Part shown: in pieces, positions 4,201 through 5,942 of the stretch
Position numbering within the stretch: the first letter of the stretch is position 1
Layout of the letters: each line of letters starts with the position of its first letter
Source: Craspedostauros australis
Lineage: Eukaryota
Length of the DNA: 50,699 bases
Reading direction: 5' to 3'
Assembly (NCBI GenBank): GCA_030167865.1
Contig: JALAGF010006411.1
Location: 1 to 50,699 of the forward strand
Notes under the pieces: model-generated
Database searches by the model: none
Seen by the model: only the letters and a program-made list of their open reading frames with translations
Told to the model about the DNA's origin: nothing
Program-made: the position numbers and the translations under genes

Positions 4201-5942
4201 GGAAATTCAATAAGCTGCCCAAGATCATCGAGAAGAACGCCTACACTCGGGCACAGAAATCGGTGCTCAAGAAATATGAAGCGACAGTGGAGCCACTCCT
4301 CCCTCCCATGGGCACGAAGGCGAGCGATGACTTTTTGGCCATCGATTGGGACGAGATGGATCTCGACACAGAGATCGAGAGTGACCACGAGAACGAGGGT
4401 GATGAGGACGAGGGTGATGAGGGCGAGGGCGACGACGACGACGACGACGTGGACATTGGAATGGAATTCGATGCTATTACCCTGCCCGATGGGGTCGTCA
4501 GCATAGACACCATCGATGATAGCGATGATGATGATGACTTTGATCCAGAGAACAATGAGGATGGTGCGGTTTCTGGAGAAGCCACGCATACGCAGACCGC
4601 GAAGGAGGGATCATCATTTTCTTCGGATGACTCATCGTTGGGAGGTACCGTCGGAGGTTCCATCCGGAGCATGTCGACATGGGCTGGCGGATATTCTGCC
4701 TCTCGTCGATGGCGTGGCGGAATGTCGCCACATCTCACACCGTTGCGTCGATCGCAAGCGTTCCTGAAACGGAATGATCGCTGGGCGGTTGCTCCGAATC
4801 ACGTGAGCAGATCGATGCATACACGCATTGGTTTGGTCGGCCAGCATCGCAATCATTCAGCATGCACAGGCCGCATGATGCGTTCCGCAGGAGGCAGGAA
4901 GAGCTTGCTGGCAGCAGGCGCCATGGCCGCCGCGTTCTTGTTTGGTTCCACCAGCGCTGATCCGCTGGCATTGTCAGGCGCGGCCACGAAGAGATGGACA
5001 GCGTCCCGACCCATGCGCAACCTGCGAAGCATTCTGCAGCCTGAACCGCTGCCAACACTCGATGATATGCTGCATATCGATGATGCGGTTCCGCACAGTC
5101 GAATCGATCTTCGTGGAGGAGACATCCCTGCATCATCTTTCCTGCCCTCCCGACCAACCCCGCCGCTGGAATTCGCGCACGGCACCACGACGCTGTCGTT
5201 CACGTTCGACGGCGGCATCCTCGTGGCCGTCGATTCTCGCGCCAGCATGGGTAGCTTCGTGAGTTCGAAGACGGTGGAGAAGGTGCTGCCGATCAACTCG
5301 CACATCCTCGGCACCATGGCCGGCGGCGCCGCCGACTGCCTGTTCTGGATTCGCAAGATCCAATCCGAAGCTCTTCTGCATGAGCTGTGCGAGAACGGCC
5401 GGCGCATGTCGGTGGCGCGGGCGTCGCGGCTGCTGTCCAACGCGCTGTACATCAACCGCAGTTTGGGTCTGTCGGTGGGCACCATGATCATGGGCTTTGA
5501 CGATGATGGCAGCGGTGCCGATACTGCGGCACGAAGAAGACGGCTGTTGCCACGTATCTTCTACGTCGACAACACGGGTGTCCGCATCGAGGGTGACATG
5601 TTCTCGGCAGGATCCGGCAGCACGTTCGCTCTGGGCATCTTGGACACGGAACGACGCCCGGATATGAAGAAGGAAGAAGCAGTCGCGCTGGGCATCAAGG
5701 CCATCCGCCATGCGACATTCCGCGATGCCTACTCCGGCGGCTTCATCAACGTGTACGTTCTAACGCAGGATGATGGATGGCAGAAGGTGTTTTCGGAAGA
5801 TCTGGCCAGTCATCAACATCAGCAGCAGCATACAGCAGCAGGTGGCGTCACGAATGCATCAAGCGCCATGGAAGATGCCGAGGCGGGCCCGAAGAGAGGC
5901 AGCGGCGAAGGCACACATGAACATGATGGCCAGGATCTTTGA
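1110..5942 (+). CDS. XRN1-type 5'-3' exoribonuclease fused to proteasome subunit beta type-5 (single intronless ORF, 1610 aa)
   Basis: Canonical XRN start [15 protein letters not shown], with in-frame TAG/TAA at 1074-1079 just upstream. XRN motifs: [119 protein letters not shown]. Beta5 motifs: [13 protein letters not shown], K33, [21 protein letters not shown]. No stop codon between the two domains. Confidence 0.92.
   Translation: [1610 protein letters not shown]
5184..5942 (+). other. PSMB5: Predicted mature proteasome beta5 (chymotrypsin-like, Ntn-hydrolase) domain within the fusion ORF
   Basis: Thr1 codon at 5184 (aa 1359), preceded by His-Gly. Counting from Thr1 gives Asp17, Lys33, Met45 and Cys52 at the same positions as in beta5/Pre2. 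Confidence 0.93.

Follow-up and report, generated by a model that had tools for sequence, protein, structure and literature searches.

A single open reading frame in the window (the whole 50,699-nucleotide stretch of DNA that was analysed) joins an XRN 5′–3′ exoribonuclease to a non-canonical proteasome beta5 subunit, with a signal-like segment between the two enzymes. The reading preferred here, which is given about an even chance of being right, is that this segment is an internal, cleavable ER signal that splits a polyprotein, such that XRN stays in the cytosol while beta5 enters the chloroplast ER and probably reaches the periplastidal compartment. The observations on which this reading is built are a continuous and conserved frame, a conserved signal-like segment, a clade of signal-bearing beta5 subunits, intact catalytic residues, and the lack of a conserved internal Met.

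Architecture of the Fused Gene

The frame encodes, in order, the exoribonuclease, a disordered tail, the signal-like segment, and proteasome beta5. The features are as follows.

1110..5942, + strand: XRN-beta5 fusion gene, read as one uninterrupted frame of 1610 codons with its stop codon at the end
1110..2189, + strand: XRN_N catalytic domain, aa 1–360, with a canonical N-terminus (nine residues); Pfam PF03159, E 4.9e-85
2355..3485, + strand: XRN helical domain XRN_M, aa 416–792; Pfam PF17846, E 7.1e-96
3678..4172, + strand: Xrn1-type D1 domain, aa 857–1021; Pfam PF18332, E 6.6e-10, 39.5 bits (cut-off 26.2)
4173..4874, + strand: linker or tail of low complexity, acidic at first and then basic and rich in Ser/Thr; unalignable between species, always open
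4665..4679, + strand: R-S-M-S-T, the window copy of the linker motif R-x-[FYML]-[SAH]-[TS]
4875..4901, + strand: basic n-region MMRSAGGRK, aa 1256–1264, with ATGs at 4875 and 4878
4902..4958, + strand: putative apolar h-region and small-residue c-region (19 residues), aa 1265–1283, by a home-made −3/−1 rule
After 4958 and after 4982 (LSGA|A), + strand: first and second candidate signal-peptidase sites, by the same home-made −3/−1 rule
4959..5039, + strand: basic Ser/Thr/Arg-rich, transit-peptide-like stretch (27 residues), net +4
5040..5183, + strand: acidic beta5 propeptide-like stretch, net −5, ending ...PPLEFAHG at the autoprocessing site
5112–5123, + strand: RGGD motif in the propeptide-like stretch
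5184..5939, + strand: mature part of proteasome beta5, starting with Thr1 (aa 1359) and running up to the stop at 5940–5942; Pfam PF00227, E 1.8e-42

This frame has the best codon-usage score of the six frames in every segment that was tested. From 4200 to 5162 it runs for 321 codons without an in-frame stop, and the same stretch was stop-free in 0 of 5000 base shuffles. A gap of N is present in the window at 184–240, far upstream of the fusion frame. Sequencing run X1, the kind of which was guessed, gave a 709-base contig on 5494–6202 and a low-complexity piece near 1084–1637, neither of which bears on transcript starts.

The N-terminal part of the protein is classed as an XRN 5′–3′ exoribonuclease, as XRN_N, XRN_M, and the acidic catalytic motifs are all present. 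All four of the catalytic-region motifs checked by regular expression were found, and solved Xrn1 and Xrn2 structures match this part with E values from 1e-126 to 1e-113. The D1 match (PF18332, 39.5 bits) would fit the Xrn1 type over Xrn2/Rat1, yet solved Xrn2 and Xrn1 chains score alike. No paper on a fusion of XRN with a proteasome subunit in diatoms was found. Literature searches combining exoribonuclease, proteasome, periplastid, and Phaeodactylum gave no link between XRN and the proteasome, a search combining Xrn1, diatom, signal peptide, and proteasome gave no mention of Xrn1, and a search for beta type-5 gave only unrelated papers. The portion available of a 2025 SELMA phylogeny paper (PMC12412216) contains no mention of XRN or 20S subunits, and one supplementary file of PMC11775308 contained no match.

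The Signal-like Segment

The translation of 4875–5050, with which the translation of 4875–5942 begins, is identical to the peptide that the earlier note had described as a signal peptide plus a transit-peptide-like segment. The parts assigned to this peptide were confirmed in the window, namely basic residues, then 19 apolar residues of which the last four are STSA, then a basic Ser/Thr/Arg-rich stretch, as were the ATGs at 4875, 4878, and 4923 and the placement of the proposed cleavage site (after STSA, that is, after base 4958). The earlier wording understated, however, that the segment occupies residues 1256–1283 of the 1610-codon frame and is not at the start of the gene; the N-terminal position of a bipartite signal is therefore not found in the open frame.

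The ten residues before the apolar stretch of the window contain four K/R and no D/E. None of the 19 residues of the stretch itself is D, E, K, R, N, Q, H, or P, and the last five are G-S-T-S-A. Downstream, the net charge is +4 over 27 residues (4959–5039) and then −5 over the next 47. The +1 residue is D for the site after 4958 and A for the site after 4982, neither of which is F/W/Y/L. Signal and cleavage calls were made with our own hydrophobicity and −3/−1 heuristics, and the site rule is liberal, as it finds a site in 116/116 fused proteins. By these heuristics, the n-, h-, and c-regions of an ER signal peptide are recognized in the window and in 116/116 orthologues.

Conservation was assessed in the products of a long-protein search that is able to return fused forms only; it gave 118 matches, 114 of which are XRN-beta5 proteins. 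Four unrelated chimeras from fish, a foraminifer, and flukes (P0226, P0230, P0231, P0233) were left out. Named sources of the fusion are Cylindrotheca, Fistulifera, Nitzschia, Mayamaea, Seminavis, Conticribra, Thalassiosira, Skeletonema, Pseudo-nitzschia, Detonula, Corethron, Amphora, and Ditylum, and nine of the fused open reading frames are transcriptome-derived. The earlier note had made its proposal depend on conservation of the hydrophobic segment in orthologues, and a basic-then-apolar segment was indeed found 45–126 residues before Thr1 in 116/116 XRN-beta5 proteins, indicating that its presence is more than chance. The best 13-residue Kyte–Doolittle mean ranges from 1.53 to 2.85 in the 116 fused proteins, compared with −0.34 to 1.91 in 43 canonical beta5 precursors. 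The n-region has a median of three K/R and no D/E in the ten residues before the apolar stretch, and the 30 residues upstream of that stretch are net positive in all 116 fused proteins (median +6). The apolar stretch has a median length of 16 residues (n = 116), with 17 or fewer in 72 proteins and at least 21 in 13. By eye, Thalassiosirales sequences were seen among those of at least 21 residues. A small-residue −3/−1 site is located 14–29 residues past the n/h boundary, again by heuristic.

In only 5/116 proteins does the heuristic place F/W/Y/L at +1, and in 111/116 it places another residue there, as would be expected of proteins bound for the periplastidal compartment or the ER but not for the stroma. 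The transit-peptide-like part described in the earlier note is clear in the window (+4), but across the family it is only weakly basic (median +1): 63 of 116 proteins have a positive charge there, 36 have a negative one, and 17 have no net charge. Because of this weakness, a periplastidal fate is less secure than entry into the ER.

Metagenome loci offer a sample that is small (10) but independent of gene callers and free of length bias, as they were picked by beta5 peptide patterns alone. Class-A loci were counted where at least 900 nt of upstream DNA was present (n = 10), and loci L028 and L049 were left out as they have no Thr1 site. XRN homology is found upstream on the same strand in 9/10 of these loci, and in 8/10 one frame stays open all the way from XRN, past the apolar segment, to Thr1. 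XRN motifs were found in 0/66 canonical or unclassed beta5 metagenome loci. At locus L004, the reading frame shifts between the segment and beta5.

The linker that precedes the segment has a strong codon-usage signal in 4200–4535 and a weak one in 4536–4874. The motif R-x-[FYML]-[SAH]-[TS], which often reads RGFATF or RxFST in other diatoms, is present in 85/116 fused-protein linkers compared with 22/116 shuffled linkers, mostly 40–70 residues ahead of the apolar stretch. This excess of a positioned motif indicates that the linker is under protein-level selection. The idea that the R-x-F-S-T form is a mitochondrial-type processing site was dropped, its sole basis being a general resemblance.

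The Beta5 Subunit and Its Clade

The C-terminal part of the protein is classed as proteasome beta5, as it matches PF00227 and resembles beta5 over other beta subunits. Among solved structures, the 60 closest matches are without exception beta5, beta5i, or Pre2 (best E 4.8e-60). A search of the ESM Atlas gave generic proteasome clusters only. The autoprocessing site HG|TTT is located at 5181–5192. The catalytic residues, which we take to be numbered Thr1, Asp17, Lys33, Ser129, Asp166, and Ser169, align with those of solved beta5 structures, and by sequence the catalytic site is intact. An RGG motif is present 20–39 residues ahead of Thr1 in 54/116 fused proteins.

Of the comparisons called for in the earlier note, the one with canonical beta5 was made in a phylogeny. 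The split between 34 signal-bearing beta5 sequences and 24 canonical beta5 sequences has support of 100/100, placing the window protein outside the canonical group, and the diatom group within the signal-bearing clade has support of 100/98. No red-algal or nucleomorph beta5 was identified by name, and the tree contains no named diatom or red-algal canonical beta5. When canonical beta5 P0113 was used as the query, no diatom names appeared among the best 120 matches. We infer a separate cytosolic beta5 in diatoms, although no canonical diatom beta5 was identified by name.

The signal-bearing clade also includes stand-alone members, which are found in Ectocarpus (CAM9742599.1 / CBN75495.1), Pelagophyceae sp. 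CCMP2097 (KAJ1460468.1), Thalassionema, Leptocylindrus, and metagenome locus L010. In the last of these, an in-frame stop is located 117 codons upstream, and the 6 kb upstream contain no XRN. Leaders of the stand-alone proteins do not align with those of the fused ones outside the Gly|Thr1 region, and the putative homology of the two signals is argued from their position and from the tree built on the mature part. The proposal that the segment behaves like the ER signal peptide of a non-canonical beta5 gains from both sets of sequences, as the segment is conserved in all orthologues and is N-terminal in the stand-alone relatives.

Proposed Mechanism

In the proposed mechanism, ribosomes would begin at the XRN start codon (1110) and make a single polyprotein, of which approximately 1250 residues of exoribonuclease and tail would be synthesized in the cytosol. 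The emerging basic-then-apolar segment (4875–4958) would then be recognized as an internal ER signal sequence, its strongly positive upstream flank remaining cytosolic as the chain that follows passes into the chloroplast ER. Next, signal peptidase would cut after the small-residue c-region (approximately 4958), parting XRN from the beta5 precursor. XRN would remain on the cytosolic face, with the signal peptide as a C-terminal anchor until its release. The beta5 precursor would have a new, transit-peptide-like N-terminus without an aromatic +1 residue and would probably be imported across the periplastidal membrane. Finally, beta5 would be assembled into a capless periplastidal 20S proteasome, where Gly|Thr1 autocatalysis (5183|5184) would remove the remaining leader. 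To our knowledge, internal cleavable signals behind a folded domain of 1250 residues are rare in cellular proteins.

Alternative Explanations

The earlier note suggested that beta5 may be made from an internal start. In its developed form, which is considered rather unlikely, transcription from a start inside the XRN tail would give a short mRNA on which Met 4875/4878 begins a pre-beta5 with an N-terminal bipartite leader, while the long mRNA would yield XRN and its beta5 part would be irrelevant or a by-product. In the window itself, an internal start is physically possible, as Met codons precede the apolar stretch by 7 and 8 residues, and the stand-alone relatives within the diatom clade (Thalassionema, Leptocylindrus, L010) carry N-terminal signals, suggesting that the leader works at an N-terminus. 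Transcriptome open reading frames P0012, P0347, and P0348 also start within the linker, but these may be truncated contigs. As a conserved solution, synthesis from an internal Met did not hold: a Met is present 15 or fewer residues upstream of the apolar stretch in 27/116 proteins, against 30.1 expected from the Met content of the linker, and is thus no commoner there than chance. A control position 60 residues upstream has a Met in 32/116, and the nearest Met is more than 60 residues from the apolar stretch in 25/116. Furthermore, a beta5 with its own start would leave the linker free to close, whereas it is open in 8/9 unbiased XRN-bearing loci and in nine transcript-derived fusions, and contains a positionally conserved peptide motif. 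The other option raised in the earlier note, a full-length protein with the segment as a signal-anchor, fared better in that a full-length protein with an internal signal fits the data better than an internal Met, but cleavage is likelier than permanent anchoring because most apolar stretches lack the length of a stable anchor and have small residues after them.

With an uncleaved signal-anchor, the product would be a type II protein of the chloroplast ER with XRN cytosolic and beta5 lumenal, its halves parted only by Gly|Thr1 autoprocessing. This arrangement is judged improbable, even though there is a strong charge asymmetry (median +6 upstream versus +1 downstream), the apolar stretch is at least 21 residues long in 13/116 proteins, and Thr1 autocatalysis would, from established proteasome biology, free mature beta5 without signal peptidase. 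Taking about 19 or more apolar residues as the span of an anchor, the window stretch has 19 and the family median is 16, with 17 or fewer in 72/116. The stretch is Ala/Gly-rich in the window, the small residues at −3/−1 are as in cleaved signals, and the stand-alone relatives resemble ordinary cleaved pre-proteins. A beta5 held in the ER membrane also could not reach the periplastidal compartment, where, in the accessible text of PMC3101018, partner 20S subunits were localised. It is highly improbable that the segment has no targeting role, such that the fusion is cytosolic, the apolar stretch is part of a long beta5 propeptide, and autoprocessing frees XRN. This explanation is favored by the length and variability of beta5 propeptides in many eukaryotes and by the absence of a separate canonical diatom beta5 identified by name. 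Nevertheless, 43 canonical beta5 precursors have no such segment, the segment corresponds to what is, in stand-alone relatives from four named lineages, an N-terminal signal, and the clade stands apart from canonical beta5 at 100/100. Judging from known 20S assembly, a folded propeptide extension of 1250 residues would also have to be enclosed as half-proteasomes join. An assembly or gene-model error that joined two adjacent genes has almost no chance of being the explanation. The N gap at 184–240 is far upstream and the frame change of L004 falls between segment and beta5, which could be held in its favor, but the frame was read directly from the DNA of the window, the same continuity is found in transcriptome open reading frames and in raw metagenome DNA without gene models, and 4200–5162 stays open in 0/5000 shuffles.

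Implications

It is possible, albeit doubtful, that in most diatoms signal peptidase splits a polyprotein at the chloroplast ER, giving the periplastidal 20S proteasome its missing catalytic beta5 and leaving the Xrn1-type mRNA exonuclease of the cell on the outermost plastid membrane, tail-anchored at its cytosolic face. In Phaeodactylum, the reported periplastidal 20S subunits are alpha2, two alpha7, beta2, beta3, beta6, and beta7, and the available text names no beta5 (Moog et al. 2011, PMC3101018); the accessible parts of PMC5756292 likewise document such subunits without beta5. The diatom periplastidal proteasome is described in the portions of the literature available as partial or 'degenerate', and the fusion would add a chymotrypsin-like catalytic subunit to it. 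This beta5 would have escaped screens that look for targeting signals only at the N-termini of gene models, a warning that predictions of diatom organelle proteomes overlook proteins hidden in fusions.

The arrangement would also place 5′–3′ mRNA decay where the mRNAs of plastid proteins are translated, and it would hold the synthesis of XRN and beta5 at a 1:1 ratio. An XRN tethered to the membrane of the chloroplast ER is a further prediction, one that would bear on the local turnover of mRNA in complex-plastid algae. An internal cleavable signal that sends two unrelated enzymes to two compartments would be very unusual outside viruses, and the gene would offer a natural test case for ER targeting machinery that faces a signal behind a large folded domain.

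Comparison with Known Systems

The window protein shares XRN_N, XRN_M, a D1 domain of the Xrn1 type, and intact catalytic motifs with the Xrn1/Xrn2 exoribonucleases. In contrast to these enzymes, its C-terminal disordered tail continues into a signal sequence and a proteasome subunit. With canonical beta5 (PSMB5, Pre2, PBE) it shares the Ntn-hydrolase fold family, the Gly|Thr-Thr-Thr site, and the catalytic residues, but identity is 45–57% and the two belong to separate clades. Among the characteristic changes of the window beta5 is SKT-x-x-KVLP where canonical beta5 has GSG-x-VKKVIEI, and its precursor contains a signal-like hydrophobic segment that is not present in 43 canonical precursors.

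The stand-alone ochrophyte and diatom beta5 paralogues belong to the same clade as the window beta5 and have the same order of hydrophobic signal, spacer, and Gly|Thr1. They differ in being proteins of 250–350 residues that begin with the signal, whereas in the window and in most diatoms it follows XRN. The periplastidal 20S subunits of Phaeodactylum, as described in the accessible text of PMC3101018, resemble the window protein in that a 20S subunit follows a signal peptide and a transit-peptide-like stretch without an aromatic +1 residue. Their bipartite signal is N-terminal, whereas the candidate signal of the window is internal, with approximately 1255 residues of XRN ahead of it in the same frame.

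The capsid/envelope junction of the Flaviviridae, as in hepatitis C virus core-E1, is an analogue of the proposed mechanism only, being viral and not homologous. There, a cytosolic N-terminal protein is followed by an internal signal that is cut by signal peptidase on the lumenal side. The upstream protein retains the signal peptide for a time and is anchored by it in the membrane, and membrane glycoproteins are made from the part downstream.

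The Signal-like Segment Lies Within a Fused Frame

The signal-like segment ahead of the proteasome beta5 is found not at a gene start, but at residues 1256–1283 of an uninterrupted 1610-codon frame (1110–5942, forward strand). Pfam matches to the protein encoded by this frame place the domains of an XRN 5'-3' exoribonuclease upstream of the segment and a proteasome domain downstream.

aa 1–360, forward strand: XRN_N
aa 416–792, forward strand: XRN_M
aa 857–1021, forward strand: Xrn1 D1 domain
aa 1357–1550, forward strand: Proteasome

Translation of 4875–5942 gives a 355-residue protein opening with the leader peptide quoted in the earlier note, and the basic n-region, hydrophobic core and small-residue site described there match the window translation exactly. 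ATG codons are present at 4875, 4878 and 4923. The n-region contains four Lys/Arg and no Asp/Glu over 10 residues, the apolar stretch comprises 19 residues without charged or strongly polar side chains, and the proposed cleavage falls after STSA (base 4958). The 27 residues encoded by 4959–5039 have a net charge of +4, while the next 47 residues have a net charge of −5 and end at the beta5 autoprocessing site HG/TTT (5181–5192). Across 4200–5162 there are no stops in the 321 codons of the ORF frame, whereas the two alternative forward frames contain 4 and 22, and none of 5000 base shuffles of this interval was stop-free. Furthermore, codon usage favors the ORF frame as the best of six in every segment, with a weak margin in 4536–4874.

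The neighbors of XRN-beta5 are ordinary eukaryotic nuclear genes, including those for an ALIX/BRO1 protein, a GDSL lipase, a cation-ATPase C-terminus and a RING finger protein. Other features of the neighborhood are as follows.

184–240: assembly gap (57 N) that precedes the XRN start codon by ~870 nt
5950–5975: (GA)n microsatellite directly past the XRN-beta5 stop codon, in a region spanned by a contig of sequencing run X1 (5494–6202)
8714–10861, forward strand: 716-residue low-complexity ORF (Ser, Thr, Gln and Asp runs) immediately following the fusion gene region, with no Pfam match
31454–34360 and 34520–35329, reverse strand: eIF3c by domain matches (eIF-3c_N and PCI), as two ORFs ~160 nt apart
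48740–50488, reverse strand: copia-type reverse transcriptase ORF (RVT_2, E 1.2e-19), probably the remnant of a retrotransposon

The split of eIF3c is most simply explained by one intron. Judging by this gene, introns are used in the genome; the 4.8-kb XRN-beta5 frame shows none.

Conservation of the Fusion

A protein search limited to 885–2818 residues, which can return long proteins only, gave 118 matches, of which 114 combine XRN domains with a proteasome domain. The remaining four were left out as unrelated chimeras; they come from one fish, one foraminifer and two flukes. Named sources of the fusion are the diatoms Cylindrotheca closterium, Fistulifera solaris, Nitzschia inconspicua, Nitzschia sp. 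Nitz4, Mayamaea pseudoterrestris, Seminavis robusta, Conticribra weissflogii, Thalassiosira sp., Skeletonema, Pseudo-nitzschia, Detonula, Corethron, Amphora and Ditylum. Nine of the fused proteins are ORFs from MMETSP-type transcriptomes, indicating that the continuity of XRN and beta5 exists in mRNA. Existing automatic annotation labels these proteins '5'-3' exonuclease/20S proteasome alpha/beta subunit'.

Due to the length bias of this search, a second sample independent of length and gene models was assembled from metagenome contigs chosen by two beta5 peptide patterns. These contigs were translated in all six frames, and tblastn was used to look for homology to the XRN part. Sequence of 900 nt or more ahead of the catalytic Thr1 (window 5184) is available for ten loci of this beta5 type. 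Same-strand XRN homology is present upstream in nine of the ten, and in eight (L001, L002, L003, L005, L007, L008, L009 and L030) XRN, the apolar segment and Thr1 lie in one continuous open frame. In L004 (around nt 375–926), the XRN tail and the signal-like segment share one frame and beta5 is in another, which reflects a frameshift from sequencing or, alternatively, a short intron separating signal and beta5. The remaining locus, L010, is on a 24,652-nt contig and encodes a Leptocylindrus-like protein with an N-terminal signal; its frame is closed by a stop 117 codons ahead of Thr1, and the 6 kb upstream show no XRN homology. XRN motifs occur in the upstream frame of none of 66 canonical or unclassed beta5 loci. 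The Leptocylindrus-type gene (L010; proteins P0248/P0249) is stand-alone, and Thalassionema proteins begin directly with the signal; consequently, the fusion is not universal in diatoms.

Signal-like Features Across the Family

The window protein and 115 other fused proteins having the Thr1 site were scored. A basic-then-apolar segment is present 45–126 residues ahead of Thr1 in all 116, so the hydrophobic segment of the window is conserved in every orthologue scored. The best 13-residue Kyte-Doolittle mean is 1.53–2.85 in the fused proteins, versus −0.34 to 1.91 in 43 canonical beta5 precursors scored in the same way. The apolar stretch has a median length of 16 residues (≤17 in 72 proteins, 18–20 in 31, ≥21 in 13), and the 10 residues preceding it contain a median of three Lys/Arg and no Asp/Glu. 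The 30 residues upstream of the stretch are net positive in every protein (median +6). A small-residue −3/−1 site lies 14–29 residues past the n/h boundary in 116/116, by a home-made rule that is liberal and hence weak evidence. Phe, Trp, Tyr or Leu follows the heuristic cleavage site in only 5/116.

The transit-peptide-like stretch described in the earlier note fared less evenly: it is positive in the window, as the charge of its 27 residues shows, but weak across the family, where the 25 residues downstream of the apolar stretch have a median charge of +1 (63 positive, 17 zero, 36 negative). In 104/116, the last 30 residues ahead of Thr1 carry a net negative charge. Taken together, the segment has the pattern of a cleavable ER signal with a cytosolic N-flank. 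The stretch that follows is weakly transit-peptide-like, and beyond it lies an acidic beta5 propeptide. A further motif, RGG(D/E), is located 20–39 residues before Thr1 in 54/116 fused proteins (R-G-G-D at 5112–5123 in the window) and could mark an additional site of processing or a contact made by the propeptide.

Internal Start or Read-through of the Linker

It had been proposed that beta5 is made from an internal Met, and a short message with a start at 4875/4878 is compatible with the window, which has Met-Met at these positions. If the conserved solution were a short message with its start immediately ahead of the signal, a Met would be expected to persist at that position. Instead, a Met occurs ≤15 residues upstream in 27/116 proteins, versus 30.1 expected from the Met content of the linker (1.98%) and 32/116 at a control position 60 residues further upstream. 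Extending the interval to ≤30 residues gives 54/116 versus 52.4 expected, and the nearest Met is >60 residues away in 25/116. Upstream Met is thus at chance level, arguing against an internal start as the conserved solution; the placement seen in the window arises by chance in about a quarter of orthologues.

The linker provides additional evidence against an internal start. It is unalignable between species, yet it is stop-free in the set of fused proteins and in the eight open metagenome loci. Moreover, the motif R-x-[FYML]-[SAH]-[TS] is found in 85/116 linkers versus 22/116 shuffled ones, mostly 40–70 residues before the apolar stretch. It often reads RGFATF or RxFST and sometimes occurs twice (further examples are P0126, P0131, P0167, P0182 and P0189). 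The window copy is as follows.

4665–4679, forward strand: R-S-M-S-T, linker motif

The enrichment and conserved position of this motif show that the unalignable linker is under protein-level constraint. A linker that stays open and carries a positioned motif argues that ribosomes translate through it into beta5. In P0018, a transcriptome ORF of 315 aa, the end-of-XRN motif (PPILENNE) is only ~30 residues before the signal-like segment, so the long tail of the window protein is dispensable in some species.

Identity and History of the Beta5

The best 60 solved-structure matches to the mature part are all beta5, beta5i or Pre2 (best E 4.8e-60), with the catalytic residues aligned. A first tree separates 38 sequences of the window type, both fused and stand-alone, from 20 canonical beta5 at 100/100, placing the window beta5 as something other than the canonical orthologue. 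An exhaustive representative search gave many more beta5-like proteins with a hydrophobic N-terminus, two of which were named by cluster look-up: Ectocarpus (CAM9883942.1, CAM9742599.1; CBN75495.1 is a shorter Ectocarpus model) and Pelagophyceae sp. CCMP2097 (KAJ1460468.1). A more careful tree splits 34 signal-bearing sequences from 24 canonical ones at 100/100. Within it, the diatom group (14 sequences) is supported at 100/98 and that of the remaining 20 signal-bearing sequences at 94/83; long branches in several rows and a bootstrap that is not fully settled leave the inner order unsure.

Stand-alone diatom forms (Thalassionema nitzschioides, a cluster with a T. frauenfeldii sequence, Leptocylindrus aporus and a Proboscia-like cluster) are nested among the fused ones in the first tree. 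The simplest history would be an ochrophyte-wide, signal-peptide-bearing beta5 paralogue that was fused behind XRN in diatoms, with a few lineages in which it was split off again or had never been joined. Because the clade is unrooted in the tree, gain of the fusion is indistinguishable from its loss. Neither the best 120 matches to a canonical beta5 nor cluster look-ups identified by name a canonical diatom, red-algal or nucleomorph beta5. Consequently, the coexistence of a canonical cytosolic beta5 in diatoms and a symbiont origin of the signal-bearing clade are assumptions. In a quick tree, P0407, P0408, P0423, P0425, P0427, P0438, P0442, P0444, P0445 and P0448 form one subgroup (SH-aLRT 100). 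These beta5-like proteins are highly divergent, have an evident hydrophobic signal at the N-terminus and share the motif LQYHGTTT; they suggest that the range of signal-bearing beta5 paralogues extends far beyond diatoms.

Proposed Processing and Destination

Bipartite leaders and periplastidal 20S subunits are already known. For Phaeodactylum, Moog et al. 2011 (PMC3101018) report periplastidal localization of alpha7-1/2, beta2, beta6 and beta7 together with prediction of alpha2 and beta3, with beta5 and 19S not named in the text; Cavalier-Smith 2017 (PMC5756292) gives the same summary. No description of an XRN-proteasome subunit fusion in diatoms, or of its internal signal, was found in the literature searched, and the accessible text of a 2025 SELMA phylogeny (PMC12412216) does not mention it. 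What appears to be new is a periplastidal-type leader and beta5 paralogue internal to a conserved cellular polyprotein.

We infer the cell-biological steps of polyprotein splitting from sequence. One chain would be translated from the whole gene, and the internal signal would be recognized on emerging from the ribosome. The positive N-flank and the folded XRN would remain cytosolic, while the C-terminal part would enter the chloroplast ER. Signal peptidase would then cut near residue 1283, and the new N-terminus, without an aromatic residue and basic in the window, would send beta5 on to the periplastidal compartment. We infer this destination because a 20S subunit on its own would serve little purpose in the ER lumen and other 20S subunits are reported to be periplastidal in Phaeodactylum. 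Autocatalysis at Gly/Thr1 would strip the rest of the leader upon assembly.

XRN, for its part, would keep the signal peptide as a C-terminal anchor. Such an arrangement would resemble that of the Flaviviridae polyproteins, in which capsid proteins keep a signal peptide as their C-terminal anchor.
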